From: Armatimonadota bacterium
GTDB taxonomy: Bacteria; Armatimonadota; JAAZEB01
Reading direction: 5' to 3'
Length of the DNA stretch: 62,992 nucleotides
NCBI GenBank assembly: GCA_016199585.1
Contig: JACQGM010000105.1
Span: forward strand, 1-62,992
Shown here piece after piece: positions 37,816 to 61,163 of this stretch. Every line of letters starts with the position of its first letter. Position 1 is the stretch's first letter. Position numbers and translations under genes: made by a program. Under the pieces are notes generated by a model. That model made no database searches and had not been told where the DNA came from. It was given only the letters and a program-made list of their open reading frames with translations.

Positions 37816-40800
37816 ATGGTATCATTCGCCTTGGTTCTCTTGCTGGGCGCGGCTTCCGCCGGTTCCGCTCAGGCGGAGCGCAACGGGAACCTGATCCCCA
37901 ACGGGGGATTCGAGAAGGACGGAGACCGTGACGGTCTCCCCGATGGCTGGGCGTTCGCCGATGTCGGCGAGGGGGTTCGGCCTGAAGCGCGGCCGGCCGC
38001 TCCCGCACGGGCAGGGCGCTCCAGCCTCTGCGTGGTCACCGGCGGGCAGCAGGTCACGCTGACATCCCCCGGCTTCGTGCTGAAGCCGGGCGCCACCTAC
38101 CAGGTGAGCGCGTGGCTGCGGATGGAGGGCCGGTTCCCACAGGACATGGTGAGCGTGCGCGTCGCCACGGACGCCGGGAACCGCTCCTTCGAGTTCCACC
38201 TGGCGCGGCCATGGCGCAAGTGCGCCGCCACGTTCGTCGCTCCGGAGGGTGCGCGCTCGGCAACGCTCCAGTTCCGCGGGCTGGGCGGCCTGGCCGACCG
38301 GACCTACATGGACGACGTGGCAGTGAGGGAAGCGGCCGCGTCGGTGGCGGAGCGGAAGCCGCCCGTCCACCGGACGGACCTCGCCCGGTTCGAGTTCCCG
38401 CGGACGGGGTCGTTCGTGGAGTATGCCACGGCGCAGATCGAAGAGATGAAGCGCGAGATGGCGGGCCGCGACAGCCGCGAGCACCCGTGGGTGAGGCAGG
38501 CCGAGCCACTGCTCCAGGAGCAGTTCCACTTCTTCAAGGAGGGATACACGACCGACGGCCGGTGGCTGCCGGTCTTCAACGTCGGCATGAACTGCCCCAA
38601 AGACGCGGCCCGCCTGAACCCGGTGGTCCATGCCGATGGCAGCCATGAGATGAAGTGCCCCAAGTGCGAGGGGGTCTACCGCACCGAGGCGAACCTTCAG
38701 TGCGCCCGGGCGGTCTACAACCAGAACCTGTTGAGGGCCGGGGCGGCGTTGGGCCGGGCCTATGCGCTCACCGGGGATGAACGCTACGCCCGGCGGGTCA
38801 AGGATATCATGCTCGGGTTGGCGGAACGCTATCCGACCTGGGGGCGAGGGCCTCACCTCTCCTTCACCACGTTGAACGAGGCTGAGAACATGGTCTCCTT
38901 CTCGGCAGCCTTCGAGCAGATCCGAGATAGCGTCATTCTCTCGGTCGAGGAGCGCCGGAAGATCGAGGAGGGCCTCCTGCGGCCGGTTGGGGAGTTCATC
39001 CGCAGGGGGAGCATCTCGGATCGGATGAACAACCGGGCGGCGATCTACAGCAAGGCGGTGATGGCCATCGGCCTCGCCCTTCGCGACAAGGCACTGGTGG
39101 ACCACGCCCTCAACGACCCGGATGCCGGGCTTCACGCGCTGTCGGCGGGGATGTTCGACGCAGATGGCCTCTCGTTCGAGGGGTTCGGATACCAGTCCTA
39201 CGGCCTCTCGGGGCTCTCTCCCACGGCGGAGATGGCCTACCGCATCGGCCTCAACGTCTACCGCGACCCCGCCTACCGGAAGGTCTTCCTCCCGCAGTTG
39301 CAGATCCTGCTCCCCGGCGAGGAGAGCCGCGGGTGGGTGCGCCAGTACGACCTGGCGTGCCGGCGCTTCGCCGAAGCGGGACAGCCCCTGGAGTTCCCCT
39401 TCGATGACGAGGGTCGGCTCACGGTGGTTCCCGCTTCCTCTTACAACTTCGGAAAGTTCGGCTACGGGATCCTCCGTTCCGGAGAAGGCCTGGACCAGGT
39501 CTATCTGACGATGGAGTACGGCGTCGAGACGATGTTCATGGGCCACGCGCCCGCGCCGAAGTTCGCCACGCTCCTCTACGCCAACCGCCGGCTGCTGACG
39601 CCACGAGGCGCCACCTCTTCGTACGGAGACCCGCTCTGCGGCGGGTGGTCGCGCCGCACGCTGGCGCACAACGCCCTCACGGTGGACGACCGCGACCAGT
39701 GGGGGCGCACGCCCGGCCGGTTCGTCGCCTTCGAGGCGGCCCCCCGGGTGAAGGTGGCGCGCGCGGCAGACGACGAGACCTACGGTGGCGTCACGCTGGA
39801 CCGGACGCTCTTCCTGGCGGACGGCTACGTGGTGGACCTCTCCGCCGCCCTCGCCGCTGCCGGAGATCACCGCTTCGATCTTTGCTATCGCTTCTACGGC
39901 GACCTCGCCTGCGGCCTCCCCTTCCAGCCTCGCGGCGGCCCCCTGGGCGCCGGGCACGGCTACCAGTACCTCACCGACGCGCGGAGCGCGCGCACCGCCG
40001 CAGACTGGTCGGCCGATTGGCGCCAGGCGGAGGACTCGGCGCTGCGGCTCTCGGTGGTAGGCGGGCCGGAGACGGAAGTGATCGCCTGCGCGTCACCGGA
40101 CAACCGGAGCGCCGAAGAGAAGGTGGATGCCATCGTCGCCCGCCGGTGGGGCGGGGATACGGTGTTCGCCTCCGTGTGGGAGACCTACCGCGACCGGCCG
40201 TCGGTCGTCAGCACCCGCCGTCTGCCGGCGGCGGGAGGGGATGCCGAGGGCGTGGGCGTAGAAGTCGTAAGGCAGGGACGCCCGGGCGCGGAGTGCTTTC
40301 TTGCCGCGTACGCGGCGGGGGAGCGTCAGTACGGCGACATTGAGCTGGACGGGAAGATTGCGGCGGGACGCTGGGTCAACGCGGAGGCGGCGCCCGACTA
40401 TGCCTACCTGGTGAAGGGCGTGCTGCTGCGGCGCGGCGGCCGCTCGCTGGAGGCGAGTGCCCCCGCCACGCTCTATGTCGAGCAGATCGCTCCCGACCGG
40501 CTGCGGGTGCAGACCGGCAGCGAGAGCGCCGGCAAGCTGGCCCTCACGGGGAGATTGGCCGCCGGGGCCGGCGTGACGCGCGCCGGCGAGAAGGTGGCGA
40601 CGAAGGCGGATCGAGGTCGGACTCTCACCTTCACGGCCGCTGCCGATGCCGCCTACGAGGTGACGGGCGTTGCCGACTGGCGGCGGATCCGGCTGGCGCG
40701 CGAAGGCCGGGCGCAGGAGACGGCAGCGGCGGAGATGGTGCCCGTGGCGGCGACCGCGCCGCCCGAACCCACGATCCAGGCGCCCCTGGCGCCCGACGGC

Positions 40801-41367
40801 ACGCTGGCGGGGAAGAACAAGGTCCCCGACGCCGGCTTCGAGGTGAACCCCAAGTCGCGGCCCGGCGCCGTCAGCCCCTGGGAGACGTGGTCCTCCTACC
40901 ACTTCGCCAAGTTCCGCCCGCGCACCGAGTACGACGCCGAGCAGGCTCACAGCGGCAAGCACTCGCTGAAGATCCTGCAGAGCAACTGGGCGAACGAAGC
41001 CACCCAGGACGGCTGGATCGAGCAGCGGGTGCCGGGCGTGGGGGCGGGCAAGACCTACACGCTCTCCGCCTGGGTGAAGGCGAACCTGGCTCCGACGCGG
41101 GTGCGCCTCTGCATCTACGGCTACAACCCGAAGTGGGGCAACGACTACGAGGGCGGCGTCTCGCCCATGTTCGACGTTGGCACGGAGTGGCAGCGGGTTG
41201 CCTGGACGCGCACCTTCGGCCCGGAGATCACCGACGTGCGCGTGATGGTGAAGCGCGAGCACCAGGTCCTCGGCGGTGACCTCTGGATCGATGACGTCCA
41301 GTTGGAAGAAGGCCCGGCGGCCACCGACTTCGCGCCGGACGCCTGGAGCGGGAGCGTTCAGCAGTGA
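37816..41367 (+). CDS. heparinase II/III-like polysaccharide-lyase-family protein H1 with N- and C-terminal jelly-roll (CBM4_9-like) domains
   Basis: GGAGGAGG RBS and signal peptide 'MVSFALVLLLGAASAGSAQA'. The N-terminal domain shows 'NLIPNGGFE...TYQVSAWLRM...YMDDVAVRE'. The toroid-like region shows 'NNRAAIYSKAVMAIGLAL..FEGFGYQSY'. The Hepar_II_III-like region shows 'MFMGHAPAPKF...LAHNALTVDDRDQW'. The C-terminal domain shows 'TYTLSAWVKA...WIDDVQLEEG'. Confidence 0.7.
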   Translation: MVSFALVLLLGAASAGSAQAERNGNLIPNGGFEKDGDRDGLPDGWAFADVGEGVRPEARPAAPARAGRSSLCVVTGGQQVTLTSPGFVLKPGATYQVSAWLRMEGRFPQDMVSVRVATDAGNRSFEFHLARPWRKCAATFVAPEGARSATLQFRGLGGLADRTYMDDVAVREAAASVAERKPPVHRTDLARFEFPRTGSFVEYATAQIEEMKREMAGRDSREHPWVRQAEPLLQEQFHFFKEGYTTDGRWLPVFNVGMNCPKDAARLNPVVHADGSHEMKCPKCEGVYRTEANLQCARAVYNQNLLRAGAALGRAYALTGDERYARRVKDIMLGLAERYPTWGRGPHLSFTTLNEAENMVSFSAAFEQIRDSVILSVEERRKIEEGLLRPVGEFIRRGSISDRMNNRAAIYSKAVMAIGLALRDKALVDHALNDPDAGLHALSAGMFDADGLSFEGFGYQSYGLSGLSPTAEMAYRIGLNVYRDPAYRKVFLPQLQILLPGEESRGWVRQYDLACRRFAEAGQPLEFPFDDEGRLTVVPASSYNFGKFGYGILRSGEGLDQVYLTMEYGVETMFMGHAPAPKFATLLYANRRLLTPRGATSSYGDPLCGGWSRRTLAHNALTVDDRDQWGRTPGRFVAFEAAPRVKVARAADDETYGGVTLDRTLFLADGYVVDLSAALAAAGDHRFDLCYRFYGDLACGLPFQPRGGPLGAGHGYQYLTDARSARTAADWSADWRQAEDSALRLSVVGGPETEVIACASPDNRSAEEKVDAIVARRWGGDTVFASVWETYRDRPSVVSTRRLPAAGGDAEGVGVEVVRQGRPGAECFLAAYAAGERQYGDIELDGKIAAGRWVNAEAAPDYAYLVKGVLLRRGGRSLEASAPATLYVEQIAPDRLRVQTGSESAGKLALTGRLAAGAGVTRAGEKVATKADRGRTLTFTAAADAAYEVTGVADWRRIRLAREGRAQETAAAEMVPVAATAPPEPTIQAPLAPDGTLAGKNKVPDAGFEVNPKSRPGAVSPWETWSSYHFAKFRPRTEYDAEQAHSGKHSLKILQSNWANEATQDGWIEQRVPGVGAGKTYTLSAWVKANLAPTRVRLCIYGYNPKWGNDYEGGVSPMFDVGTEWQRVAWTRTFGPEITDVRVMVKREHQVLGGDLWIDDVQLEEGPAATDFAPDAWSGSVQQ

Positions 41368-41524: not shown

Positions 41525-44500
41525 ATGAGAGGGAACGTGCTGGTCCTGTTGATGGGAACGGCTTGCCTGGCCGCCGGGGGCGCCGAGCCGGCACGGGGAA
41601 CCGACCTGCTGCCCAGCGGCGGGTTCGAGACGGACGCGGACGGAGATGGCATCCCCGACGGGTGGCGACTCGCCGTAGACCCGGCGGATCGGCACCTCAC
41701 CGGTCGCCTCTCTCCCGAGGCCCACTCCGGGAGACACGGCTTCTGCGTGGCGAACGGCACGGGGAGCCGAGGATCCACCCTCACATCGCCCGCGTTCGAC
41801 CTGAAGCCGGACACCGCCTACGAGGTGAGCGCCTGGCTGAGGATGGACGCCCGGTTCCCCCAGGATACCGCGCTCCTGCGCGTCTCCGCGGGTGGCCGTT
41901 CCTACTCCTTCGATCTCACCATTACCCGGCAGTGGCGACGGCGCGCGATCCGATTCGTGACCGAGCCCGGCACGACATCGGGCACCCTGCAGTTCTCGCA
42001 GTTGGGCGGCCAGGCGGAGCGCCTTTACCTGGATGACGTGGCGGTGAGGGAGGTGGATGCGAAGGACGCCGTCCCGCGCATCCCCCGCACCGACCTGACG
42101 GGCTTCGAGTTCCCCCGGCACCGCCCCAGGGTCCAGCACACGGCGGAGGAGGTCGAGGCGATCCGGCGGGCGATGACGGGCCGTGACCTGCGCCAGCACG
42201 CCCGGGTCACGGCCGGCGACCGCTGGCTGGAGAAGCGGCTTCACTTCTTCGAGGAAGGCTACGACTTCCGGAAGCACTTCGCCACCGGGCGCAACTGCTC
42301 CGACGACGGCACGGTCCTCAAGCCGGTGGTTCACCCGGACGGCACGTGCGAGATGCGCTGCCCCAAGTGTGAGCGGGTCTTCCGGGAGGAGGCGCACCGG
42401 GCGACGGCCCGGGCACTCTTCAATCGGGAGATGGCCGTGGGGGCGGCGAGTCTGGGGCGGGCGTACGCGCTCACCGGGGATCCGCGCTACGCCGTCCGCG
42501 CGCGGGAGATCCTTGTCGGCCTGGCGGACCGCTACCGGGTGCTGAAACCGGGGATGCACCTGGTCTTCACTCACCTCACCGAAGCGCACACCTTCCTCCT
42601 CTCGTGCGCGCAAGCCTACGACTACATCTGCGAGAGCCCGGCCTTCCCCGAGGAGGACCGCCGGAAGGTGGAGGAGGACCTGCTCCGCGCCGGGGCGGAG
42701 TACTTCTGCCACCACTCGCAGACCAACGGCGCGAGGAACAACCGCGGGGCGATCCACAACAAGGCGGTGATGGCGATCGGGGTCGCCCTTGGCGACAAGC
42801 GGTTCGTGGACCACGCGCTCAACAACCATCTCTCGGGCTTCCACGCGCTGGTGGGGTGCTTGTTCCTCCCGGACGGTCTGAGCTGGGAGGGCTTCGGGTA
42901 CCACTTCTACACGCTGTCGGGGCTTCTGCCAATCGCTGAGATGGCCCATCGGGTGGGCATCAACGTGTATGAAGACCCCGCCTGGCGGAGGGTCTTCGAG
43001 GCGCCTCTCAAGGCGCTGGCGCCAGGCGAGGAGTTCCCGAGAGTGGACCTGGAGACCGCTTCCCGAAGGTTCGCGGAACTCGGTCGGCCGCTGGCGTTCC
43101 CTTCCGGGAAGAGTGACACGCCTGCCGCCATCGCGTCCCACAACTTCGACCACTTCGGGCTCGCGGTGCTGCGGCGAGGCGCGGGCCCGGATGAGATCTA
43201 CCTCTCGATGGAGTGCGGCAAAGAGGCGATGTTCATGGGCCACGCCCCGGGGGTGAAGTTCTCGTTGGGTCTCCATGCGAACGGCCGGATGCTCACGCCT
43301 CGGGGCGCCGCCACCTACGGCAGCGCGCTCTGCGGGGGATGGGCTCGCCGATCACTCGCGCACAACGCCATCACGGTGGATGACCGCGACCAGTGGGGGC
43401 GCGTCGCCGCCGGACCCGACCTCAACTACGTGCCGCACCGGCTGACCGCCTTCGCCGCCGCTCCCGGCGTCCAGGTGGTGCGCGCGCGGGACGACGATGC
43501 CTACGGCGACGTCACGCTCGACCGGACGCTCTTCCTGGCGGACGGCTACGTGGTGGACCTCTCTGCCGCGCGCGCCGCTGCCGGAGAGCACCGTTTCGAC
43601 CTCTGCTACCGCTCCTATGGCAGCCTCGCCTGCGGCCTCCCCTTCCAGCCTCGCGGCGGCCCCCTGGGCGCCGGGCACGGCTACCAGTACCTCACCGACG
43701 CGCGGAGCGCGCGCACCGCCGCGGACTGGTCGGCTGATTGGCGGCAGGACGAAGGGAGCGCCTTGCGGCTCTCGGTTGTGGGGGGGCCGGAGACGGAGGT
43801 GATCGCCTGCGCCTCCCCCGACAACACGAGCGAGGAGAGGCGCGTGGATGCCGTCGTCGCCCGCCGGTGGGGCGAGGGCACGGTGTTCGCCGCCGTGTGG
43901 GAGCCCTACCGCGACCGGCCATCCGTCACCAGCGCCCGCCGCCTGCCGGTGGCGCAGAGGGATGCGGAGGGCGTGGGCGTAGAGGTCGCGAAGGAGGGCC
44001 AGCCGGGCGCCGCGGTCTTCCTCGCCGCGTACCGGCCGGGGAAGCGGCGGTACGGCGACATCGAGCTGGACGGGATGGTCGCGGCCGGGCGCTGGCGCAG
44101 CCCGGAAGCCGCGCCCGACTACGCGCACCTGGTCAAGGGCGTGCTGCTGCGGCGCGGGAGCCACTCGCTGGAGGCGACCGCCCCCGCCACGCTCTATGTC
44201 GAGCAGATCGCTCCCGACCGGCTGCTGGTGCGGACCGGCAGCGAGAGCGCCGGCACGCTGACCATCACGGGAAGGCTGGCGCCCCGGGCAGGCGTGGAGC
44301 GCGGCGGCGAGAGGCTGGCGGCGAAGCCGGAGCGCGGGCAGTCCCTGACCTTCGCGGCCGCGGCTGATACGTCCTATGAGGTCACCGGAGTGGCCGATTG
44401 GCGGAGGATCCGGCTGGAGTGCGAAGGCCGGGCCGAGGAGCCGGTGCAGCCGGAGGCGGCGCCCGTGGCGGAGACGTCCGTGCGGGAGCCCGCAGCCGAG

Positions 44501-45073
44501 GCGCCCCTGGCGGGGAGGAACAAGCTCCGCAACGCCGGCTTCGAGATCAACGAGCAGACGCATCCCGGCGCAGCGAACCCCTGGGAAGCCCGGAGTTCCT
44601 ACCACCTGGTGAAGTTCCGCGCCGACCACGAGTACGACGCGGCGGTCGTCCACAGTGGTGGGCGCTCGTTGAAGATCCCCGGGCTCACCTGGGCGAACGA
44701 GGCGACCCGCGACGGCTGGATCGAGCAGCGGGTGCCGGGCGTCGGGGCGGGCAAGACCTACACGCTCTCGGCCTGGGTGAAAGCCAGCCAGGACCCGACG
44801 CGGGCGCGACTGGTGATCTACGGCTGGAACCCGAAGTGGGGCAACGACTACGAGGGCGGGGTCTCGCCCATGTTCGACGTTGGCACGGAGTGGCAGCGGG
44901 TGGCCTGGACGCGCGCCTTCGGCCCGGGGATCACCGACGTGCGCGTGATGGTGAAGCGCGAGCACCAGGTTATCGGCGGCGACGTCTGGATTGACGACAT
45001 CCAGTTGGAGGAAGGCCCGACGGCCACCGACTTCGCGCCCGATGCCTGGAGCGAGAGCGTACTCCCCCCGTAG
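41525..45073 (+). CDS. heparinase II/III-like protein H2 (paralog of H1)
   Basis: GGAAGGAGAG RBS and signal peptide 'MRGNVLVLLMGTACLAAGGA'. It has the same architecture and motifs as H1 ('AYEVSAWLRM', 'MFMGHAPGVKF', 'LAHNAITVDDRDQW', 'WIDDIQLEEG'). Confidence 0.7.
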   Translation: MRGNVLVLLMGTACLAAGGAEPARGTDLLPSGGFETDADGDGIPDGWRLAVDPADRHLTGRLSPEAHSGRHGFCVANGTGSRGSTLTSPAFDLKPDTAYEVSAWLRMDARFPQDTALLRVSAGGRSYSFDLTITRQWRRRAIRFVTEPGTTSGTLQFSQLGGQAERLYLDDVAVREVDAKDAVPRIPRTDLTGFEFPRHRPRVQHTAEEVEAIRRAMTGRDLRQHARVTAGDRWLEKRLHFFEEGYDFRKHFATGRNCSDDGTVLKPVVHPDGTCEMRCPKCERVFREEAHRATARALFNREMAVGAASLGRAYALTGDPRYAVRAREILVGLADRYRVLKPGMHLVFTHLTEAHTFLLSCAQAYDYICESPAFPEEDRRKVEEDLLRAGAEYFCHHSQTNGARNNRGAIHNKAVMAIGVALGDKRFVDHALNNHLSGFHALVGCLFLPDGLSWEGFGYHFYTLSGLLPIAEMAHRVGINVYEDPAWRRVFEAPLKALAPGEEFPRVDLETASRRFAELGRPLAFPSGKSDTPAAIASHNFDHFGLAVLRRGAGPDEIYLSMECGKEAMFMGHAPGVKFSLGLHANGRMLTPRGAATYGSALCGGWARRSLAHNAITVDDRDQWGRVAAGPDLNYVPHRLTAFAAAPGVQVVRARDDDAYGDVTLDRTLFLADGYVVDLSAARAAAGEHRFDLCYRSYGSLACGLPFQPRGGPLGAGHGYQYLTDARSARTAADWSADWRQDEGSALRLSVVGGPETEVIACASPDNTSEERRVDAVVARRWGEGTVFAAVWEPYRDRPSVTSARRLPVAQRDAEGVGVEVAKEGQPGAAVFLAAYRPGKRRYGDIELDGMVAAGRWRSPEAAPDYAHLVKGVLLRRGSHSLEATAPATLYVEQIAPDRLLVRTGSESAGTLTITGRLAPRAGVERGGERLAAKPERGQSLTFAAAADTSYEVTGVADWRRIRLECEGRAEEPVQPEAAPVAETSVREPAAEAPLAGRNKLRNAGFEINEQTHPGAANPWEARSSYHLVKFRADHEYDAAVVHSGGRSLKIPGLTWANEATRDGWIEQRVPGVGAGKTYTLSAWVKASQDPTRARLVIYGWNPKWGNDYEGGVSPMFDVGTEWQRVAWTRAFGPGITDVRVMVKREHQVIGGDVWIDDIQLEEGPTATDFAPDAWSESVLPP

Positions 45074-45195: not shown

Positions 45196-46596
45196 ATGAA
45201 ATGGCCCTGCGGGAAAGGTGGGACAGATATGCACACCTGGTTTCGCGGCACATTGGCAGTGGCAGGCACCTGCTGGCTGGGCCTGGGCGTCGCAGCGGCC
45301 CGGGGGAGCCAGCCCGGGCCGCTGCGCGTCGGCATCGCTACCGCCGACATCACGCCGGAATCCCCCGCGTGGCTGCGTGGTTTCGGGAACCGCGACAACG
45401 TGAAGCCCTCCGAGGGCGTGGCCCGGAAGCTGCTGGCCGAATGTGCGGTCTTCGACAATGGGCAGACGCGCGTGGCGCTGGTGGCTCTGGATCTGTGCAA
45501 TCTTGGCTACCGGCAGTTGCTCGGGCTGCGCGCGGCCGCGGAGGCCGCCGGCATCCCTCAGCAGCACCTCATGGTCAACGTCTCACACACGCACTTCGGC
45601 CCTCGCATCGAGGAACCCCAGCCCGGCCAGCGGAACTCCGAGTACGCGGCCCTCTTCACGGATCGCACCCGGGGGCTCTTCGCCGCCGCCGTTGCCGACC
45701 TGCAGCCGGCAGTGCTGGACTACACCGTCGGCTCCTGCGCGATGGGGATGAACCGCCGCCAACTGAGGCCGGACGGCACCTATCGCGGGGGACCGGAGCC
45801 CCGCAAGGCAATCGATCCCGATGTGCCGGTGCTGCGGGTGCTCAACGCCGAGGGACAGGTGCGCGCCGTCCTCTTCGGCTATGCCTGCCATCCCACCACC
45901 GCCGGGGGGCGGGCGATGTTCCTGGTGGGGACGGACTACCCCGGCTACGCGCGCGATTGGGTGGCGGCCGCCTATCCCGGAGCGGTGCCGATCTTCTTCC
46001 AGGGGTGCGGGGGCGACATCAAGCCGCGCGCCATCCGGCCCAGCAATGGGGAATCCCGCGGGCAGTTCCACTGCGTGCTCCTGAACGAGGAGGAGATGAA
46101 GAAGGCGGTGGGCTACGAGCTGGGGAGGGCGGTGGTGGCCGCCACGGCCGTGCCCCCCCCGCCGGTGCCCGCCGACCGTTCCGCCGAGCTGGAGAAGGCC
46201 CTCGCCACCCCCGTGGTTCTCGGCGGCATCGTGGAGACGGTCTCCCTCCCCTCCAAAGCGGATCCGAAGCGGATGGGCGACTACCGTTGGCACATGGGCG
46301 CGTGGCGCATCGGCGATGTCTGCATCTTCGGCAGCCAGGGGGAGCTGCTCAACGCCATCGGGCGGCGGATCAAGTCGGAGTCGCCGGGCGTGCGCCTCTG
46401 GGCCAACGGCTACACGCACTGGGGCGGGGGCTACTTCGCCGATGCCGCATCCCGTCCGGAGGGCGGCTACGAGGTGGAGAACACCGCGTTCGCCGTAGAG
46501 GCCGAGGAGATCATGGTCGGCAACGCCCGCCGCTACGTCAAGGAGCTGCAGACTGACCCGGTCCACGCCGCGCCGATCCCGCGCCTGCACCCCTGA
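45196..46596 (+). CDS. neutral/alkaline ceramidase N-terminal-domain-like secreted hydrolase C1
   Basis: ORF 45127-46596. ATG 45196 has GGAGG 7 nt upstream, and ATG 45229 is an alternative. Signal peptide 'GTLAVAGTCWLGLGVAAA'. Motifs: 'GPLRVGIATADITPESPAWLRGFG', 'MVNVSHTHFGP' and 'FGYACHPTT'. Confidence 0.65.
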   Translation: MKWPCGKGGTDMHTWFRGTLAVAGTCWLGLGVAAARGSQPGPLRVGIATADITPESPAWLRGFGNRDNVKPSEGVARKLLAECAVFDNGQTRVALVALDLCNLGYRQLLGLRAAAEAAGIPQQHLMVNVSHTHFGPRIEEPQPGQRNSEYAALFTDRTRGLFAAAVADLQPAVLDYTVGSCAMGMNRRQLRPDGTYRGGPEPRKAIDPDVPVLRVLNAEGQVRAVLFGYACHPTTAGGRAMFLVGTDYPGYARDWVAAAYPGAVPIFFQGCGGDIKPRAIRPSNGESRGQFHCVLLNEEEMKKAVGYELGRAVVAATAVPPPPVPADRSAELEKALATPVVLGGIVETVSLPSKADPKRMGDYRWHMGAWRIGDVCIFGSQGELLNAIGRRIKSESPGVRLWANGYTHWGGGYFADAASRPEGGYEVENTAFAVEAEEIMVGNARRYVKELQTDPVHAAPIPRLHP

Positions 46597-53024: not shown

Positions 53025-56000
53025 ATGGATGACGTGAAGATCACTCAGTTGAGGAACGTGTGCGCCCTGATGGGGGCGATCTGTGTCGCCGCGGGCAGCC
53101 CCGGTCAGGGAGCCGAGCGGGCGCGCGGGGACAACCTTGTACCCAACGCCGGGTTCGAAGAGGAGACGGTGAAGGCCGGCCTCCCCGACGGCTGGACGCT
53201 TTCCGTGCGTCCGGAAGATACCGGACAGACGAACGGGCAGCTCTCCAGAGCTGCGCGCTCGGGCCGGTACAGCTTCTGCGTGGAGCAGAGGAACGGATCG
53301 CAGGGGGCAACCCTCATCTCACCCCGCTTCGAGCTGAAGGCGGGCACCGCCTACGAGGTGAGCGCCTGGTTGAGGATGGAGGGGGGGCGGTTGCCCAAAG
53401 ACACCGTGACCCTTCGCGTGACCACCGACGGCGGCAACCGCAGCTTCGACTTCACCGCCACCCGCAGGTGGCGGCGGGCGACGGCCATCCTCCTCACCGG
53501 CGCCGGCACGACGTTCGGGAACCTCGAGTTGCAGCGGCTGGCCGATGTGGCGGATCGCGTCTTCATCGATGACGTGGCGGTGAGGGAGACCGATGCGAAA
53601 GGCGGGGTGCCGGTCGTCCACAAGACCGACCTCGCGGCCTTCGAGTTCGCCCGCCAGCGCCCGCGGGTGGAGCACACCGCGGCGGAGATCGAGGAGATGA
53701 AGCGTTCGCTGGCGGGCAGCAACGTTCGCGAGCACGAGTGGGTGAAGGCCGCGGAGCCGTGGCTGGAGCGGCAGCTCTTCTTCTACGAAGAGGGGTGCGG
53801 CCCGAAGTACTACTCTGCCGGGGTGATGTGCCCCGTGTGTGGCGCCCAACTGCGGGGGATCGTCCACCCGGACGGCGCAACCGAGATGGAGTGCCCCAAG
53901 TGCGGGAAGCGCTACCGAGAGGAGGCTCACCGGGCCGTGGGCCGCGCCTGGGTGAACTGCCGGCAGGCGAGCGGGGCCCAGGCGCTCGGCCGGGCCTACG
54001 CGCTCACCGGCGACCTGCGCTTCGCCCGGCGGGCGGCGGAGATCCTCCTCGGGTTCGCCGGCCACTACAAGGAGTGGGGCGGCGGACACGCGGCACACTA
54101 CACCCTCCACGAGCCCTATGCCTTTCTCACCCCCTGTGCCGCCGCCTACGACTACATCTACGACAGCGGCGTTCTCTCGGCGGAAGAGCGTGGCAAGGTC
54201 GAGGAGAACCTCCTGCGCGTCGGCGCCGAGTTCTACAGTCAGCAGGGCATCAGCGATCGACTGAACAACCGCTCGGCCGTCTACAGCGAAGCGGTGATGG
54301 CGATCGGGGTGGCGATCGGCGACAAGGGGTTCGTGGATCACGCGATCAACAACCCCTACGCCGGCTTCCACACCCTGGCGGCGCACCTCTACCTGCCGGA
54401 CGGGCTCTCTTGGGAGGGCTTCGGGTATCACACCTACACGGTGAGCGGCCTGGCGCCCATCGCGGAGAAAGCCTACCGCGTCGGCATCAACGTTTACGGC
54501 GACCCGGCCTACCGAAGGATCTTCGAGGCGCCCCTCGCCGTGCTCCTTCCCGGGGAGGAGTTGATACCCAAAGACTACGAGGTCGTCTGTCGCCGACTTG
54601 CGGAGATCGGCCTCCCGCTGGAATACCCCTTCGGCGCGGCAGACCTGCCTTCCCGCATGCCTTCCCACCTCTTCGACCAGTTCGGGTTCGGGGTGCTGCG
54701 CCGGGGCGAGGGCGCGGAGCAGATCTACCTCTCGATGGAGTACGGCAAGGAGGCGATGTTCATGGGGCACGCCCCGGGGGTGAAGTTCTCCCCGCGCCTC
54801 TTCGCCAACGGCCGGCTGCTCACGGCCCGGGATACCCATACGTACGAGGGCGAGCTGGGCGGCGGCTGGAATCGCCGGTCGCTGGCCCACAATACGATCA
54901 CCGTGGATGACCGGGATCAGTGGACGCGCACGACCGCCGGGGTCGACCCCGGCTACGCGCCGCGGAAGCTGGTCGCCTTCGCCACGGCGCCCCGGGTGAA
55001 GGTGGTGCGGGCGCGTGACGACGAGGTCTACGGCGGCGTCACGCTCGACCGGACGCTCTTCCTGGCAGACGGCTATGTGGTGGACCTGTCGGGCGCCCGG
55101 GGAAGTGGGGACAGCCACCGCTTCGATCTGAGCTATCGGATCTTCGGAAAGCTCAGTTGCGGCCTCCCCTTCCAGCCGCGCAAGGGCCCGCTGGGCGCCA
55201 ATCACGGCTACCAGTACCTCACCGACGTGCGCAGCGCGCGTACGGCCGCCGCGTGGTCGGCCGACTGGCGGCAGGCAGAGGAGAGTGCGCTGCGGCTCTC
55301 GGTGCTGGGAGATGCCGAGACGGAGGTGCTCGCCTGCGCGTCTCCTCCGGATGACCGGAAGCCGGATGAGAACGGGGAGGCCATCGTGGCGCGGCGCTGG
55401 GGCGAGGGCACGGTCTTCGCCTCGGTCTGGGAGCCCTACCGCGACACGCCCCGGGTTTCCCGGGTCCGGCGCCTGCAAGTGCAGGGCGCGGGAGACTCGC
55501 AGGGCGTCGGGGTGGAAGTGGTGCAGGAAGGGCAGGCCGGCGCCGATTGCTTCCTGGTGACGTATGCGCCGGGGAAGAAGCGCTTCGGCGACATCGAGCT
55601 GGACGGGAAGATCGCGGCGGGCCGCTGGCGCAGTGCGCCGGCCGCGCCGGAGTACCTGTACCTGGTGAAGGGGGTGCTGCTGAAGCGCGGCGCCCATTCC
55701 ATTGAGGCGAACGCCCCGGCGACGCTCTACGTCGAGCAGGCGGCTCCCGGCCGGCTGCTGGTGAAGTCGGGGAGCGAGAGCGCCGGCACGCTGACCCTGA
55801 GGGGGAGGCTGCCGGGCGCGGTGACAGTGCAGCGCGACGGGCAGCCGGTGACAGTGAACGTGGCGCAGGGGAGAACCCTCACCTTCGATGTGGCTCAAGA
55901 CGCCTCCTACGACGTGACCGGCGTGACGGAGTGGCAGAGGATCCGGCTGGTGCGCGAAGGCCCGGCGGAAGCGGAAGAAGCCGCGGCGGTGGGGGCTGCG

Positions 56001-56648
56001 TCCGTGGCGGCGGCGCCCGCGCCGAAGGCCGCGATTCGGGCGTCTCTGGCGCCGGATGGCACGCTGGCGGGGAAGAACAAGGTGGCCAATGGCGGCTTCG
56101 AGGTGAGTGGCGAGACCGACCCGGAGGCCGCGGGCCTCTGGAGCTTCTGGAGCTCCTACCACTTCGTCAAGTTCCGCGCCAAGTGTCACTACGATACCGA
56201 GGTCGCGCACAGCGGCCGCGGGTCGCTCAAGATCGCCAACACCAACTGGTACGGGGCGGTGAGCCAGGACGCGTGGGCGGTGCAGAAGGTGCCCGGCTCC
56301 TGGGCGAACAAGACGGTGACGCTCTCCGCATGGGTGAAGGCCAACCTGGCCCCGACGCGGGTGCGCCTCTGCATCTATGGGCTGAACCCGAAGTGGGGCA
56401 ACGACTTCGAGGGCGGGGTCTCGCCCGTCTTCGAGATCGGCACGGAGTGGCAGCGGATCACCTGGACGCGCACCTTCGGGCCCGACATCACCGACGTGCG
56501 CGTGATGATGAAGCGCGAGCACCAGGTGTTCGGCGGCGACCTCTGGATCGACGACGTGCAGTTGGAGGAGGGCACGGAAGCCACCGGCTTTGCCCCCGAC
56601 GCCTGGACTCAGGCGGCTGAGGCAAGACGCGCCACGCCGAGGCCGTAA
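53025..56648 (+). CDS. heparinase II/III-like protein H3 (paralog of H1/H2)
   Basis: ORF 52992-56648, with ATG 53025 preferred; the start is uncertain. It has the same architecture as H1 and H2 ('AYEVSAWLRM', 'MFMGHAPGVKF', 'LAHNTITVDDRDQW', 'WIDDVQLEEG'). It also has a complete CxxC...CxxC insert, 'CPVCGAQLRGIVHPDGATEMECPKCG'. Confidence 0.7.
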   Translation: MDDVKITQLRNVCALMGAICVAAGSPGQGAERARGDNLVPNAGFEEETVKAGLPDGWTLSVRPEDTGQTNGQLSRAARSGRYSFCVEQRNGSQGATLISPRFELKAGTAYEVSAWLRMEGGRLPKDTVTLRVTTDGGNRSFDFTATRRWRRATAILLTGAGTTFGNLELQRLADVADRVFIDDVAVRETDAKGGVPVVHKTDLAAFEFARQRPRVEHTAAEIEEMKRSLAGSNVREHEWVKAAEPWLERQLFFYEEGCGPKYYSAGVMCPVCGAQLRGIVHPDGATEMECPKCGKRYREEAHRAVGRAWVNCRQASGAQALGRAYALTGDLRFARRAAEILLGFAGHYKEWGGGHAAHYTLHEPYAFLTPCAAAYDYIYDSGVLSAEERGKVEENLLRVGAEFYSQQGISDRLNNRSAVYSEAVMAIGVAIGDKGFVDHAINNPYAGFHTLAAHLYLPDGLSWEGFGYHTYTVSGLAPIAEKAYRVGINVYGDPAYRRIFEAPLAVLLPGEELIPKDYEVVCRRLAEIGLPLEYPFGAADLPSRMPSHLFDQFGFGVLRRGEGAEQIYLSMEYGKEAMFMGHAPGVKFSPRLFANGRLLTARDTHTYEGELGGGWNRRSLAHNTITVDDRDQWTRTTAGVDPGYAPRKLVAFATAPRVKVVRARDDEVYGGVTLDRTLFLADGYVVDLSGARGSGDSHRFDLSYRIFGKLSCGLPFQPRKGPLGANHGYQYLTDVRSARTAAAWSADWRQAEESALRLSVLGDAETEVLACASPPDDRKPDENGEAIVARRWGEGTVFASVWEPYRDTPRVSRVRRLQVQGAGDSQGVGVEVVQEGQAGADCFLVTYAPGKKRFGDIELDGKIAAGRWRSAPAAPEYLYLVKGVLLKRGAHSIEANAPATLYVEQAAPGRLLVKSGSESAGTLTLRGRLPGAVTVQRDGQPVTVNVAQGRTLTFDVAQDASYDVTGVTEWQRIRLVREGPAEAEEAAAVGAASVAAAPAPKAAIRASLAPDGTLAGKNKVANGGFEVSGETDPEAAGLWSFWSSYHFVKFRAKCHYDTEVAHSGRGSLKIANTNWYGAVSQDAWAVQKVPGSWANKTVTLSAWVKANLAPTRVRLCIYGLNPKWGNDFEGGVSPVFEIGTEWQRITWTRTFGPDITDVRVMMKREHQVFGGDLWIDDVQLEEGTEATGFAPDAWTQAAEARRATPRP

Positions 56649-56747: not shown

Positions 56748-58115
56748 GTGCAGAACGTACTACCGGTCGTGCTGGCCCCGGCACTCGTCTTCGGTCTGAG
56801 TCTGAGTGCTATCGCCGCCCCGGCGGATCAGCCCGGCCCGCTGCGCGTCGGCACCGCCACGGCCGACATCACCCCGGAGGCGCCGGCGTGGCTCTACGGA
56901 TTCGGCGGCCGTGACGGCGTGAAGGCCTCGGAGGGCGTAGCCCGGAAGCTGCTGGCCCAATGCGCTGTTTTCGACAACGGCCAGACGCGGGTGGCTCTCG
57001 TGTCTCTCGACCTGGGGAGGATCGGCTACGCTCAGTTGCGGCGGCTCCGCGCGGCCGCCGAGGCTGCCAGCATCCCCCAGCAGCACCTGATGGTGAACGT
57101 TTCGCACACCCACTTCGCCCCCTATGACGAAGACCGGGTACCCGGCGTGCGCAACGGCGAGTACGGGGCGCTCCTGGCGGAGCGCACCCGGGGGCTCTTC
57201 GCCGCCGCGGTTGCGGACCTGCAGCCGGCGCTGCTCGACTTCGCGGTCGGCTCCTGTGTGATGGGGATGAACCGCCGCTACCTGAAGCCGGACGGCACCT
57301 ATCGTGGAGGCCCCGAGCCGCGCAAGCCGATCGATCCCGATGTGCCGGTGCTTCGCGTGCTGGATGCTCAGGGGCAGGTGCGCGCCGTTCTTTTCGGCTA
57401 CGCCTGCCACCCTACCACCGCCGGGGGGCGGGCGATGTTCCTGCTGGGGACGGACTACCCCGGCTACGCGCGCGATTGGGTGGCGGCCGCCTATCCTGGA
57501 GCGGTGCCGATCTTCTTCCAGGGGTGCGGGGGCGACATCAAGCCGCGCTCCATTCGGCCGAGCAACGGGGGGTCTCCCGGACAGTTCCACTGCGTGCTCC
57601 TGAATGAGGAGGAGATGAAGAAGGCGGTGGGATACGAGCTGGGCCGGGCAGTGGTGGCCGCCACCGCAGTGCTGCCTCCCCCCGTTCCCGCGAACCGTCC
57701 GCAGGAACTGGAGGCGGCGCTCGCGGTCCCCGTGCCGCTCGGCGGCATCGTGGAGGCGGTACCGCTGCCCTCCAAGGAACACCCGGGGCAGATGCACACC
57801 TACCCGTGGCACATCGGCGTCTGGCGCATCGGGGACCTCTACCTCTTCGGGAGCCAGGGGGAGCTGCTCAACGCCATCGGGCGGCGGATCAAGCGCGAGA
57901 TGCCGGGCGTGCGCGCGTGGACCTGCGGCTACACCCACTGGGGGAGCGGCTACTTCGCCGACGCCGCCTCCCGTCCGGAGGGCGGCTATGAAGTGGACAA
58001 CACCGCGTTCGCCGTCGAAGCCGAGGAGATCCTGGTCGGCAACGCCCGGCGCTACGTCAAGGAGCTGCAGCGGGATCCGGTCCACGCCGCGCCGGTCCCG
58101 CGTCTGCACCCCTGA
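56748..58115 (+). CDS. ceramidase N-terminal-domain-like secreted hydrolase C2 (paralog of C1)
   Basis: ORF 56739-58115. I prefer GTG 56748, which lies 8 nt after AAAGGAG. Signal peptide 'VLPVVLAPALVFGLSLSAIAAPA'. Motifs: 'GPLRVGTATADITPEAPAWLYGFG' and 'MVNVSHTHFAP'. Confidence 0.65.
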   Translation: MQNVLPVVLAPALVFGLSLSAIAAPADQPGPLRVGTATADITPEAPAWLYGFGGRDGVKASEGVARKLLAQCAVFDNGQTRVALVSLDLGRIGYAQLRRLRAAAEAASIPQQHLMVNVSHTHFAPYDEDRVPGVRNGEYGALLAERTRGLFAAAVADLQPALLDFAVGSCVMGMNRRYLKPDGTYRGGPEPRKPIDPDVPVLRVLDAQGQVRAVLFGYACHPTTAGGRAMFLLGTDYPGYARDWVAAAYPGAVPIFFQGCGGDIKPRSIRPSNGGSPGQFHCVLLNEEEMKKAVGYELGRAVVAATAVLPPPVPANRPQELEAALAVPVPLGGIVEAVPLPSKEHPGQMHTYPWHIGVWRIGDLYLFGSQGELLNAIGRRIKREMPGVRAWTCGYTHWGSGYFADAASRPEGGYEVDNTAFAVEAEEILVGNARRYVKELQRDPVHAAPVPRLHP

Positions 58116-58157
58116 TGGCGGTCGGGCAACTGCCGCCCGTGCCGAGAAGGAAGCGAG

Positions 58158-59630
58158 ATGCCGAACGTCGTCTTCGTGATGACCGACGAACAGAACCTGA
58201 GGGGCGTCTCCTGCTACAAGGGCACCCTCTGCCAGACGCCCTCCGTGGACCGCCTGGCGGCCGAAGGGGTGCTCTTCGAGCGCGCTTACTGCTCCTATCC
58301 GGTGTGCATGCCCTCGCGCGCCGCCTTCATGACCGGGCGCTACCCTCACGTCAACGGGGTCCGGGCCAACGGCCTGACGCTCCCGGACAGGGAGGCGAGC
58401 CTGCCGGCCATCCTCAAGGCCGCGCGCTACACGACCGCCCTGTGCGGCAAAGACCACTGCTTCTCTCACCAGGCGCGCTCCAGGGTGTTCGACTACTCAC
58501 TCACGGCGATGCACTTCGGTCTTCTGGACCCAATCCCCGAGGGCTTCCCGGCTCAGGCGAAGGAGGCCAACAGCTACTACCGGGAGATGCGCAGCCGGCT
58601 CTACTCCCCCTTCGGGAACGAGGTGATCCCGTATCCGCCCGAAGTCTGCGACGCAGGCCTGATCACCGAGGCGGCGATCCGCTTCGTGGAGCGCGTCGGG
58701 AAGTCGCCCTTCTTCCTCTGGCTCTCCTATCCCGGACCGCACTGGCCCTTCACCTGCCCGGAAGCCTACGCCGGCCTCTTCCCGCCCGATAGGGTGGACC
58801 TGCCCCCTCCCGACGACCTCTCGCAGAAGCCCCGGGTCCAGGAAGTGGCCCGGCGGCTGCTCGGCCTGGACAAGGCGACCGAAGCGGACTTCCGCAAGAT
58901 CATCTCCCTCTACTACGGCAACTGCCGCTACATTGACGACCAGATCGGAAGGTTCCTGGCGCGCCTGCGCGCGCTCGCCCTGGAAGAGGAGACGCTGGTA
59001 GTCTTCACGAGCGACCACGGCGACTACCTGGGCGAGCACGGCCTCTTCCACAAGTCACCGTCGGCCTATGACGCGATCACGCGCGTTCCCTTCATCTGGC
59101 GGTGGCCCGGGCACATCCGCGCGGGTGAGCGCCGCCCCGAGTTGGTGGAGGGGGTGGACCTCCTGCCCACGGTTCTGGACCTGTGCGGCGTGCCGGTGCC
59201 GCCGGGCGTTCAGGGGATCAGCCACGCCGAGGCGCTCCTCGGGAGCGCGCCCTATCGTGCCCGCGAAGAGTGCTTCTGCGAGTGTGGCGTGGAAGGCAGG
59301 GCGACCACGCTTGAAGACCTGGCCGCGATGCCGCTCCCCGAAGGCCCCTATTCCGAGTGGGCGCTGGGTGCCTCCGGTGGCGCCGACTACTGGAACGGCC
59401 GGCTGAAGATGGTCCGAACCGACCGGTGGAAGCTCGTCTACTACCGCCGGGGCGAGGGCGAGCTGTACGACATGGACGCCGATCCCTGGGAGCTGCGCAA
59501 CCTGTACGATTCCCCCGATCATCAGGACATCGTGGCGGACCTGAAGGAGAGACTGCTGCGGTGGACCATCGAGAGTGAGGAGACTCTGCCCCCGCTGCGC
59601 GGCTCTTCGAGACAGGCGCCGGGGGGTTGA
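58158..59630 (+). CDS. sulfatase (Cys-type) without a signal peptide
   Basis: 'MPNVVFVMTDEQN' follows directly at the N-terminus. It has the formylglycine motif 'CMPSRAAFMTGRYP', plus 'VVFTSDHGDYLGEHG'. Confidence 0.85.
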   Translation: MPNVVFVMTDEQNLRGVSCYKGTLCQTPSVDRLAAEGVLFERAYCSYPVCMPSRAAFMTGRYPHVNGVRANGLTLPDREASLPAILKAARYTTALCGKDHCFSHQARSRVFDYSLTAMHFGLLDPIPEGFPAQAKEANSYYREMRSRLYSPFGNEVIPYPPEVCDAGLITEAAIRFVERVGKSPFFLWLSYPGPHWPFTCPEAYAGLFPPDRVDLPPPDDLSQKPRVQEVARRLLGLDKATEADFRKIISLYYGNCRYIDDQIGRFLARLRALALEEETLVVFTSDHGDYLGEHGLFHKSPSAYDAITRVPFIWRWPGHIRAGERRPELVEGVDLLPTVLDLCGVPVPPGVQGISHAEALLGSAPYRAREECFCECGVEGRATTLEDLAAMPLPEGPYSEWALGASGGADYWNGRLKMVRTDRWKLVYYRRGEGELYDMDADPWELRNLYDSPDHQDIVADLKERLLRWTIESEETLPPLRGSSRQAPGG

Positions 59631-59735: not shown

Positions 59736-61163
59736 ATGCCGAACCTGTTCCGCACCGCAACCATTCTGGCGACGATGCCGCTCGCCACCCTGGCCGCCGC
59801 CCAACAGAGCCAACCCGGGCCGCTCCGCGTCGGCGTCGCCAGAGCCGACATCTCGCCCGAGGGACCGGCCTGGCTGTGCGGCTTCGGCGGCCGCGACGGC
59901 AACAAGCCCTCCGAGGGCACCGCCCAGGATCTGATGGCCTACTGCGTGCTCTTCGATAATGGACAGACCCGCGTCGCCTTCGTCACCCTCGACCTGGTCT
60001 GGACCAGCTACGACCACCTGCTCCGGCTGCGCGCCGCCGCGGAGGCCGCCGGCGTTCCCCAACAGCACCTCATGGTGAACGTCTCGCACACCCACTTCGG
60101 CCCGGCCCTTTCGGATGGACAGCCCGGGCAGCGGGCCACCGAGTACGACGCGCTCCTGGTGGAGCGCACCCGGGCGCTCTTCGCCGCCGCCGTGGCCGAC
60201 CTGAAGCCGGCCCTGCTGGACTACACCGTCGGCGCCTGCGACATGGGCTTCAACCGCCGCTCCTGCTACGGGCCGGGCGGGCGCAAGCCGAACGACCCGG
60301 ATGTGCCGGTGCTGCGGGTGCTCGCTCCCGATGGGAAGGTGCGCGCCGTCCTCTTCGGCTACGCCTGTCACCCGACGACGGCCGGCGGCAACATGCTCTA
60401 CCTGGTCGGTTCCGATTACCCCGGCTACGCGCGAGAGTGGGTGGCGGCCGCCTACCCCGGCGCCGAGGCGATCTTCCTGCAGGGGTGCGGCGGCGACATC
60501 AAGCCGGGGAACGCCGGCAAGCCGAACTCCGTGTGGGAAACGGGTCTGCTCAACCCGAACCAGGCGAAGCAGGCGATGGGCTACGAGCTGGGCCGGGCGG
60601 TGATCAAGGCCGTCGCCGGGCACGGCACGGGCGCCCCCAAGTCGCCCCCCCCGGTGCCCGCCGAGCCGCCCGCCGGCAAGACCCGGGCGTGGCTGGAGAA
60701 GGAGCGGGGCTTCCCGGTGCCGCCGCCGCCGGTGCCCGCCGACCGGCCGGCGGACCCCGAGCAGGCGCTGGCGACTCCGGTGCCCCTTGGCGGCATGGTG
60801 GAGACGATCTCGCTGCCGTCCAAAGCGGATCCGGAGCGGAGAGTGTACATGCTCTGGCACACGGGCGCCTGGCGCATCGGCGACGTCTACTTCTTCGGCA
60901 GCGAGGGGGAGCTCCTCTCCGCCATCGGACGGCGCATCAAGCGCGATCTGCCCGACGTGCGCGTCTGGACCGACGGCTACACGCACTGGGGCGGCGGCTA
61001 CATCCCCGAGGCTGCCACCTACCCGGAAGGCGGCTACGAGGTGGACAACACCGCCTTCGCGCCGCAGACGGAGGATATCCTGGTCGGCAACGCCCATCGC
61101 TACGTCAAGGAGCTGCAGGCCAACCCGATCCACACGGCGCCGATCGCGCGCCTGCACCCGTGA
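59736..61163 (+). CDS. ceramidase N-terminal-domain-like secreted hydrolase C3 (divergent paralog with a Pro-rich insert)
   Basis: ORF 59661-61163, with ATG 59736 after AAAGGAAGGAGAGAG. Signal peptide 'LFRTATILATMPLATLAAAQQ'. Motifs: 'GPLRVGVARADISPEGPAWLCGFG' and 'MVNVSHTHFGP'. Confidence 0.65.
   Translation: MPNLFRTATILATMPLATLAAAQQSQPGPLRVGVARADISPEGPAWLCGFGGRDGNKPSEGTAQDLMAYCVLFDNGQTRVAFVTLDLVWTSYDHLLRLRAAAEAAGVPQQHLMVNVSHTHFGPALSDGQPGQRATEYDALLVERTRALFAAAVADLKPALLDYTVGACDMGFNRRSCYGPGGRKPNDPDVPVLRVLAPDGKVRAVLFGYACHPTTAGGNMLYLVGSDYPGYAREWVAAAYPGAEAIFLQGCGGDIKPGNAGKPNSVWETGLLNPNQAKQAMGYELGRAVIKAVAGHGTGAPKSPPPVPAEPPAGKTRAWLEKERGFPVPPPPVPADRPADPEQALATPVPLGGMVETISLPSKADPERRVYMLWHTGAWRIGDVYFFGSEGELLSAIGRRIKRDLPDVRVWTDGYTHWGGGYIPEAATYPEGGYEVDNTAFAPQTEDILVGNAHRYVKELQANPIHTAPIARLHP

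Follow-up and report, generated by a model that had tools for sequence, protein, structure and literature searches.

A contig of 62,992 bp (JACQGM010000105.1, assembly GCA_016199585.1, locus tags HY321_05xxx), the whole of which is here called the window, belongs to the metagenome-assembled genome (MAG) of an uncultured Armatimonadota bacterium. At positions 37816-61163 it carries an array of nine plus-strand genes in which large lyase-fold proteins stand next to short proteins with the catalytic fold of neutral ceramidases, together with a beta-helix protein and a sulfatase. An earlier sequence-only reading of this DNA had described nine same-strand genes behind one near-consensus promoter, and both parts of that description hold: the nine frames pass a codon-position G+C filter (G+C at third positions, 0.86-0.92), no further frame on either strand of the array passes the same filter, and a promoter with 11 of 12 consensus matches lies upstream of the first gene. 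The G+C content is about 69% and uniform along the window. The N-termini were inspected by eye for signal peptides, and export is predicted for eight of the nine products. The genes are as follows.

37816-41367, + strand: H1, 1183 aa, with a signal-peptide-like N-terminus, a CBM_4_9-like jelly roll, an alpha-toroid resembling polysaccharide lyase family 17 (PL17), a Hepar_II_III_C sandwich and a second jelly roll
41525-45073, + strand: H2, 1182 aa (MBI3945277), with the architecture of H1
45229-46596, + strand: C1, 455 aa from the NCBI start (the open reading frame opens at 45127), a predicted secreted short ceramidase-fold Zn amidase
46629-49025, + strand: B, 798 aa, a secreted right-handed beta-helix protein with Pect-lyase_RHGA_epim and Beta_helix domains (Pfam)
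49068-52958, + strand: FG, 1296 aa, with an alpha/beta domain, a predicted toroid plus beta-sandwich lyase fold (about residues 190-850) and an FG-GAP/VCBS propeller (about residues 1040-1300)
53025-56648, + strand: H3, 1207 aa from the NCBI start, with the architecture of H1 and H2
56748-58115, + strand: C2, 455 aa (HY321_05140, MBI3945282), a predicted secreted short ceramidase-fold Zn amidase, the protein of this group that was modelled
58158-59630, + strand: S, 490 aa, an S1 sulfatase of the Cys type (CMPSR) that lacks a signal peptide and is predicted to be cytoplasmic
59736-61163, + strand: C3, 475 aa from the NCBI start (HY321_05150), a third predicted secreted short ceramidase-fold amidase

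H1, H2 and H3 are 57-62% identical to one another over their full length. The Alginate_lyase (PF05426), Hepar_II_III_C (PF07940) and CBM_4_9 domains exceed the Pfam gathering cut-offs in all three, and the jelly rolls at the two ends of the proteins (the first ~185 and the last ~190 residues) are mutually homologous (hhalign probability 96%, E 1e-9). The single architecture that had been ascribed to three proteins of about 1180 aa is thereby borne out. A profile of the 12 family members matched the PL17 structure 9irq with an E value of 2.7e-27, residues 312-833 of H being aligned to residues 71-674 of 707, collinearly over toroid and sandwich; further PL17 matches were 8bdd, 7bjt and 4nei. 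Full-length relatives of H are found in only 12 clusters among 5.8 billion proteins, seven of them in this MAG, and a search of the H alignment against JGI metagenome contigs returned zero relatives.

For the PL17 enzyme Alg17c, the proposed roles are carboxylate neutralisation for Asn201 and His202, acid catalysis for Tyr258 and base catalysis for Tyr450 (PMC4765187). The Asn201/His202 dyad corresponds to N406-R407 in H, invariant in all 12 family members, the Asn being kept and the His replaced by Arg. The Tyr of the PL17 motif EGpyY, which was tied to Tyr258 of Alg17c through the Y258/Y263/Y264 spacing reported for Smlt2602, aligns to Y459 of H (at least 90% conserved), and an invariant Y462 follows three residues on. 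In the sandwich domain, both the GH and the AHN..D motif are retained. Around Tyr450 the alignment is broken by an indel, and the invariant Y598 of H is an ambiguous equivalent. Since Arg serves as the carboxylate neutraliser in other lyases, and since mutation of the dyad His in the PL17 enzyme Smlt2602 moved its specificity towards polyglucuronate, lyase chemistry is plausible for H from its sequence, while alginate is not the obvious substrate.

The names that NCBI gives to the H proteins (alginate lyase family proteins) and their best matches (PL17 oligo-alginate lyases) would suit an ordinary polyuronate cluster, for alginate or glucuronan, made of distant PL17 enzymes, with the ceramidase-like genes and the sulfatase unrelated and merely co-located. 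Such a reading appears unlikely. The H proteins score 62.5-80.7 bits against the NCBIfam equivalog for oligoalginate lyase, whose cut-off is 1400, and the His that is related to specificity in PL17 is the very residue exchanged for Arg. Moreover, the linkage of H to ceramidase-like genes recurs across genomes and phyla, and an ortholog of S is kept beside H elsewhere, as described below.

A side feature of the H family is a Cys-rich insert before the toroid, located in H2 at about residues 255-285 (window ~42290-42380). It has the form C-P-V-D...H-P-D-G...C-P-K-C and is present in 12 of 12 family members, with C258, C279 and C282 invariant. The insert resembles a zinc ribbon or zinc knuckle, which is odd for an exported lyase-fold protein.

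FG is recognised by Pfam at its C-terminus, where the FG-GAP/VCBS propeller lies. Its first ~900 residues found no match in Pfam, NCBIfam or the PDB sequences, and a direct search with the H-family hidden Markov model (HMM) was also empty. The consensus of 23 homologs nevertheless contains a heparinase-type motif, HSHPDAN...DDGY...SEHNTV, and the N-terminal region proved collinear with the H family in a profile-profile comparison (hhalign E 1.2e-4). In the AlphaFold2 model of this region (pLDDT 85.3, pTM 0.86), a toroid and a beta-sandwich come after an alpha/beta domain. The best Foldseek matches of the model in the PDB are all lyases: PL15 Atu3025 (3a0o, E 1.1e-15), PL39 (6jp4, TMq 0.48), PL12 heparinase III (4mmi) and PL35 (8khw), each with probability 1.00, and also exoHep, PL17, PL33 and PL40. 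The N-terminal part of FG is therefore predicted, on the basis of the model, to be the fourth lyase fold of the array, and the proposal of a heparinase-like/FG-GAP fusion is confirmed in a part of the protein to which Pfam is blind.

The beta-helix assignment of B is supported by Pfam as well; no PDB sequence match was found for it. S was identified as a sulfatase with PF00884 at 188.6 bits against a cut-off of 25 (E 2e-55), its formylglycine motif C-M-P-S-R lying within PVCMPSRAAFMTGR. The sulfatase domain begins at residue 2, and upstream of the ATG the frame stays open for no more than 14 codons, which leaves no room for a signal peptide; S is therefore predicted to be cytoplasmic, as expected for the signal-less Cys-type sulfatase that had been described. 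Its nearest solved relatives are mixed, including an uncharacterised Silicibacter sulfatase, GlcNAc-6-O-sulfatases (5g2v, 7p24) and an S1_30 enzyme.

C1, C2 and C3 share 60-81% pairwise identity and begin with Sec-signal-like N-termini followed by a PGPLRVG motif. On Pfam alone their assignment would be weak: Ceramidase_alk (PF04734) scores 20.2, 24.9 and 16.8 bits for C1, C2 and C3, respectively, under a gathering cut-off of 32.1, and C2 reaches 24.4 bits against the NCBIfam model ceramidase_neut, whose cut-off is 1200. More distant members of the C family, including fusion proteins and those of a Lunatibacter locus (L051) described below, do exceed the PF04734 cut-off. More sensitive searches uphold the assignment to the ceramidase N-terminal domain. 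C2 matches the neutral ceramidase of Pseudomonas aeruginosa (PaCD, 2ZWS) with E 7.5e-10 in phmmer, and the C-family profile does so with E 4.6e-19. The AlphaFold2 model of C2 (pLDDT 81.6, pTM 0.86) is matched in the PDB by neutral ceramidases only (2zws, 2zxc and 4wgk; Foldseek E 1e-21 to 1.5e-19, TM-score 0.68-0.70); the next match has E 1.7e-3 and a TM-score of 0.11, and all others stay below 0.2.

In the profile alignment, H120, H122, R177, H221, E372, Y402 and Y414 of C2 correspond to H97, H99, R160, H204, E411, Y448 and Y460 of 2ZWS, and all seven positions are invariant in 25 diverse members of the C family. In PaCD, H97, H204, E411 and Y448 are the Zn ligands, and H99, R160 and Y460 are catalytic residues. 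The C-terminal Ig-like domain of the ceramidases is absent from C: the protein has 455 aa as compared to 646 aa for the 2ZWS chain, the alignment stops at about residue 473, and the C2 model ends in a helix without an extra beta domain. Because this domain is missing, the best description of C1-C3, as far as alignment and model can tell, is that of presumably active Zn amidases built on the catalytic fold of ceramidases, and not that of ceramidases.

The size of the C family was estimated by an HMMER scan of 1.84 billion cluster representatives (clusters at 50% identity). The number of hits was 20,261 at E <= 1e-3, 10,767 at <= 1e-10 and 1,924 at <= 1e-30, and the top hits are mostly 420-490 aa long. 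In multi-domain members the domain is joined with another copy of the same kind, with RidA/L-PSP, with a BNR_2 sialidase-like propeller, with DUF7133, cytochrome c and HEAT, or with M23 and PKD (representatives P0231, P0322, P0287, P0318 and P0205). The DUF7133-cytochrome c-HEAT proteins presumably resemble membrane-bound sugar dehydrogenases of the Planctomycetota-Verrucomicrobiota-Chlamydiota (PVC) type, and the RidA, BNR_2 and DUF7133-cytochrome c partners point to sugar or amine metabolism. A homolog with 32% identity was seen in the Halobacteriales archaeon YIM A00010 (L039, JAKCFJ010000002.1:119420-140610), so that the family crosses a domain boundary. No characterised member of the short ceramidase-like family was found in the open-access literature. 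Domain hits of PF04734 are reported to be "partial" unusually often (PMC4443539), which the short C family would explain.

The window holds two adjacent H-C pairs. Adjacency on other contigs of the same MAG was judged from consecutive NCBI accession numbers, which run serially along contigs; within the window H2 (...277) and C2 (...282) fit the six-gene order. In this way two more C-H pairs were recognised (MBI3947525/6 and MBI3945054/5), and the MAG encodes at least seven H, at least eight C and at least four FG paralogs. Independent evidence comes from two metagenomic genomes outside the MAG. In the first (L081/L082, closed 5.4-Mb contigs), the neighbours of H are two distant C-like genes with 25-30% identity, a Hepar_II_III_C protein of 453 aa, a DUF6785 protein, a sulfatase that shares 77.5% identity with S, DegT, a peptidase of the M14 family and an oxidoreductase of the GFO/IDH/MocA type that bears a 3-keto-disaccharide-hydrolase domain. 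The second (L084/L085) combines H with two C-like genes and an MR_MLE enolase-superfamily protein. The DUF6785/DUF6784 protein of L081 (684 aa, L081:13620-15674) is encoded directly 3' of H; we take it to be a membrane protein, and it is a candidate for the transporter missing from the array.

A survey that started from C covered 78 genome loci. Against these, tblastn of the window proteins gave only weak H matches, and the family HMM was needed to recognise H-like neighbours. These were found in six of the 18 close C loci that span 10 kb or more; among 95 further neighbours of close C homologs, scanned together with Pfam, no family was as frequent. In Armatimonadia, tandem C genes, three in L004, six in L010 and two in L011, are directly followed by an H-like protein of ~1030 aa. 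The six tandem genes of L010 (422-475 aa, L010:3297-11302), from an uncultured member of the class, precede an H-like gene that is cut by the contig end. Planctomycetota, Bacteroidota and other phyla have more distant relatives of C, at ~30% identity. In a cultured species, Lunatibacter salilacus (L051, NZ_VOLC01000002.1, 3286-19028), Pfam shows the gene order SusC, SusD, two ceramidase-like genes, two Amidohydro_2 genes, Hepar_II_III_C, DegT and a further ceramidase-like gene. Another cultured species, Cyclobacterium xiamenense (L069, NZ_WIOK01000028.1), has the same gene lengths and BLAST gene clusters, with one gene lacking a Pfam match, which suggests that it bears a module of the same type. 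The recurrent neighbours over the 78 loci are DegT (14 loci), GFO/IDH/MocA (nine), Amidohydro_2 (seven) and DUF1559 pseudopilins (seven). The context of one homolog, P0020 (L001/L002), was set aside as uninformative, with CRISPR-Cas, WD40 and restriction-like genes.

The lyase-amidase pairing is thus a recurrent linkage across genomes and phyla, beyond this contig. The sequence-only reading underestimated its scope; the module is widespread and not peculiar to the window. Its description of the gene set as undescribed stands: no characterised locus with this set, no account of the lyase-amidase pairing and none of ceramidase-like proteins in glycan loci was found in the open-access literature. 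HMM searches, AlphaFold with Foldseek and synteny, by which that reading had proposed to be checked, all gave positive results, and the two assignments whose failure would have spoken against it, the lyase fold and the ceramidase-like fold, were both retained.

The same survey bears on another possibility, a lipid target: C1-C3 would be genuine lipid amidases for ceramide, glycosphingolipid or N-acyl chains of the lipid A type, and the function of the array would be to break down sulfated glycolipids or envelope lipoglycans of other microbes. Ceramidases are the only structural relatives of C and their full catalytic set is conserved; in addition, GH123 (GH, glycoside hydrolase family) lies near close C homologs in two loci, a family which includes glycosphingolipid beta-N-acetylgalactosaminidases. 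However, the ceramidase C-terminal domain is lacking; lyase-fold proteins, DegT, Amidohydro_2, GFO/IDH/MocA and SusC/D recur as partners, and not lipases or exo-glycosidases; and the domains found fused to C relatives are RidA, BNR_2 and sugar-dehydrogenase-like ones. Taken together, this makes a lipid target improbable in our view.

We regard it as fairly probable that the array is a catabolic, operon-like gene set for an acidic (uronic-acid-containing) glycan that bears amide-linked substituents and sulfate. Its catabolic character is suggested by the many paralogs in the MAG, the cytoplasmic sulfatase and the Bacteroidota relatives in SusC/D loci. From the predicted folds and locations we infer a substrate, a set of reactions and an order of steps as follows. 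Eight of the nine products would act outside the cytoplasm, where H1-H3 and FG would cleave the backbone by beta-elimination, each H being held to the polymer by its two jelly-roll binding modules and FG carrying its propeller, and the beta-helix enzyme B would probably assist in depolymerisation. The Zn-dependent C1-C3 would hydrolyse amide bonds of the glycan, most simply those of the N-acyl groups of amino sugars. Alternatively, they could remove amino-acid amides that mask uronate carboxylates, in which case the tight partnership of lyase and amidase would be explained. Removal of the amides would either expose lyase sites or finish the lyase products. The fragments would then be imported, and the formylglycine sulfatase S would take off the sulfate in the cytoplasm.

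Several points weigh against this interpretation. The exchange of His for Arg at a catalytic-site position, together with the ambiguous equivalent of Tyr450, weakens the case for H as a lyase; it may not be one at all. The four H-C pairs of the MAG may stem from one duplicated cassette and would then not be independent evidence, and of the four independent loci with usable flanks outside the MAG, two (L083 and L086) have H but no C. The relatives of C with solved structures all have a lipid, ceramide, as their substrate, and not a glycan. Domain scans of the window found neither the enzymes that process lyase products (GH88/GH105, KduI/KduD, KdgF) nor any transporter for such products. Finally, the case for sulfate rests on one cytoplasmic sulfatase with mixed best PDB matches, although the S ortholog beside H in L081 speaks for it. 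Of the sulfated-glycan degradation system that had been proposed, the folds and the pairing of lyases with amidases stand, while the sulfated substrate hangs on a single gene. The N-deacylation of amino sugars that went with that proposal is one option; amino-acid amides of uronic acids, or lipids, are equally open.

The transcription and the limits of the array were judged from the following flanking features.

37573-37545, - strand: divergent promoter TTGACA-17-TACAAT, back to back with the promoter of H1, serving glycosyltransferase family 4 (GT4) and methyltransferase genes
37605-37633, + strand: sigma-70-like promoter TTGACA-17-TATACT with a TG extension, 11/12 matches, ~180 nt upstream of H1
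61323-61351, + strand: perfect sigma-70 promoter TTGACA-17-TATAAT, 12/12, downstream of C3
61368-61544, + strand: M-box (Mg2+) riboswitch, a full-length Rfam match (42.9 bits against a gathering score of 44, E 5e-8)
61752-62912, + strand: gene of a CorA Mg2+ transporter, 3' of this promoter and the M-box match

Five promoter-like sites were found in the region as compared to 1.1 expected from shuffles. The nine genes lie on one strand with gaps of 18-157 bp (NCBI start sites), behind a single strong promoter, and a scan found no terminator-like site between them; two internal gaps of ~155 bp would leave room for further promoters. With these operon-like features, the nine genes may be co-transcribed as a single unit. 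The 180-nt leader of H1 has no Rfam match, and an inverted-repeat scan for a LacI-type operator gave no clear candidate either way. Pfam and NCBIfam scans agree with the earlier statement that no transporter, regulator or SusC/D-like gene is embedded in the array, and the whole window lacks a SusC/SusD pair, as expected in a polysaccharide utilisation locus of the Bacteroidota type; the related module of L. salilacus does follow such a pair. The downstream end of the array is clear, since the perfect promoter, the M-box match and the CorA gene come after C3. The M-box match was missed by the default Rfam scan at the gathering threshold. A defence system or a mobile element was considered and rejected, as nothing in the array points there and the composition is uniform across the window.

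From the start of the contig, a second cluster of carbohydrate type extends over 64-15230 (+ strand). It encodes a LacI regulator, a DUF1559/N-methyl pseudopilin-like protein, a second sulfatase, a GNAT protein, two Amidohydro_2 proteins, a 4Fe-4S protein and two paralogs of 1190-1230 aa that are 69% identical, with a weak GHL10 match only. The Amidohydro_2 pair, the second sulfatase, the DUF1559 protein and the LacI regulator lie within 64-6900, and the Amidohydro_2 gene at 6037-6900 is related to the Amidohydro_2 genes found beside C-like genes in other genomes. This cluster and the nine-gene array may form one regulon.

H1 is divergent from a set of GT4, methyltransferase and tetratricopeptide-repeat (TPR) genes at 35480-37457 (- strand), and GT2, GT87 and PMT genes lie farther upstream (20656-26917, + strand). 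In L004 (L004:33-8132) the C-C-C-H-like array stands back to back with an exopolysaccharide (EPS) cluster of GT2, Wzz, two GT4, Wzy and pyruvyl-transferase genes. EPS operons often couple a cleaving enzyme with a de-N-acetylase. These neighbours would fit an array that processes the cell's own EPS, the lyase trimming the polymer and the amidase removing part of its N-acyl groups during export, as AlgL, PelA, PgaB and Agd3 do elsewhere. Yet four lyase-fold enzymes and three amidases, with further paralogs in the genome, far exceed the known EPS operons, a cytoplasmic sulfatase has no role in export, and the Bacteroidota relatives stand behind SusC/SusD, which are import systems. Adjacency to glycosyltransferases was seen in two loci only. 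Overall, we give this alternative a slim chance.

In the most far-reaching reading, the short ceramidase-fold proteins may constitute a huge, cross-phylum and unrecognised class of carbohydrate-active amidases. They would form a deacylase family comparable to the carbohydrate esterase (CE) families, acting as dedicated partners of toroid-fold lyases and removing amide-linked groups that block beta-elimination, either N-acyl groups or amino acids masking uronate carboxyls. Likely targets would be amide-rich acidic glycans of microbial envelopes, such as polymers of N-acylated amino-uronic acids. We put this forward tentatively, as an attractive idea with rather less than an even chance of being right. 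It would explain the DegT and GFO/IDH/MocA neighbours, possibly as WbpB/WbpE-type steps run in reverse; WbpB and WbpE act in the synthesis of di-N-acetyl-mannosaminuronic acid. By this analogy, the association with DegT, GFO/IDH/MocA and RidA would fit a downstream removal of sugar amino groups, which is speculative.

Glycan-degradation clusters are well known, and the present array points to enzymes without known function. A family of ceramidase-fold Zn amidases with more than 10,000 clusters is found repeatedly beside lyase-fold proteins in Armatimonadota, other uncultured lineages and cultured Bacteroidota. If the C amidases act on glycans, they would be a new enzyme class for carbohydrate degradation, and this would aid the annotation of thousands of genes that are now "hypothetical" or mis-named "neutral ceramidase". 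It could also show how microbes in groundwater and soils recycle amide-decorated acidic polymers such as necromass, sulfated EPS and glycosaminoglycan-like material. New lyase specificities may be sought in the H family, PL17-like with its Asn-Arg dyad in place of Asn-His, and in the FG family. The cultured carriers of a related module, L. salilacus and C. xiamenense, make the question directly testable.

Among known systems, the glycosaminoglycan (heparin/heparan and chondroitin) loci of Bacteroides and Pedobacter combine lyases of PL12, PL13, PL15, PL21, PL33 and PL35 with S1 sulfatases. The array resembles them in bringing several toroid-plus-sandwich lyase-fold enzymes together with a formylglycine sulfatase, in the match of the FG N-terminal model to PL12, PL15, PL33 and PL35 structures, and in that the characterised carbohydrate sulfatases nearest to S include the GlcNAc-6-O-sulfatases. 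It differs in that the window lacks SusC/D and GH88 and the array a regulator, that H is nearest to PL17 and not to the glycosaminoglycan lyase families, and that the sulfatase of the array is cytoplasmic. We know of no described glycosaminoglycan locus with three ceramidase-fold amidases. With the PL17 oligo-alginate lyases (Alg17c, 4NEI/4OJZ; AlgL17, 9IRQ; BoPL17, 8BDD) the H proteins share the collinear toroid and Hepar_II_III_C sandwich, the catalytic Tyr and the GH/AHN motifs; unlike them, they are ~1180 aa long, have jelly rolls at both ends and a Cys-rich insert, carry Asn-Arg in place of Asn-His and fall far below the equivalog cut-off.

The neutral ceramidases (PaCD, 2ZWS/2ZXC; human ASAH2, 4WGK) share with C1-C3 the fold of the catalytic domain and all Zn ligands and catalytic residues, whereas the C proteins have no C-terminal Ig-like domain, are only ~15-19% identical and score below the Pfam cut-off, and their genomic context is that of glycan and amino-sugar metabolism, not of lipid. 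An analogy can also be drawn with the EPS-modifying pairs (PgaB, PelA, and Agd3 with Sph3/Ega3), in which an enzyme that removes amide-linked acyl groups is likewise paired with one that cleaves the backbone. The deacetylases PgaB, PelA and Agd3 have CE4 or CE18 folds and are encoded in biosynthetic operons; in contrast, the putative amidases of the array have the ceramidase fold, and their context looks catabolic.

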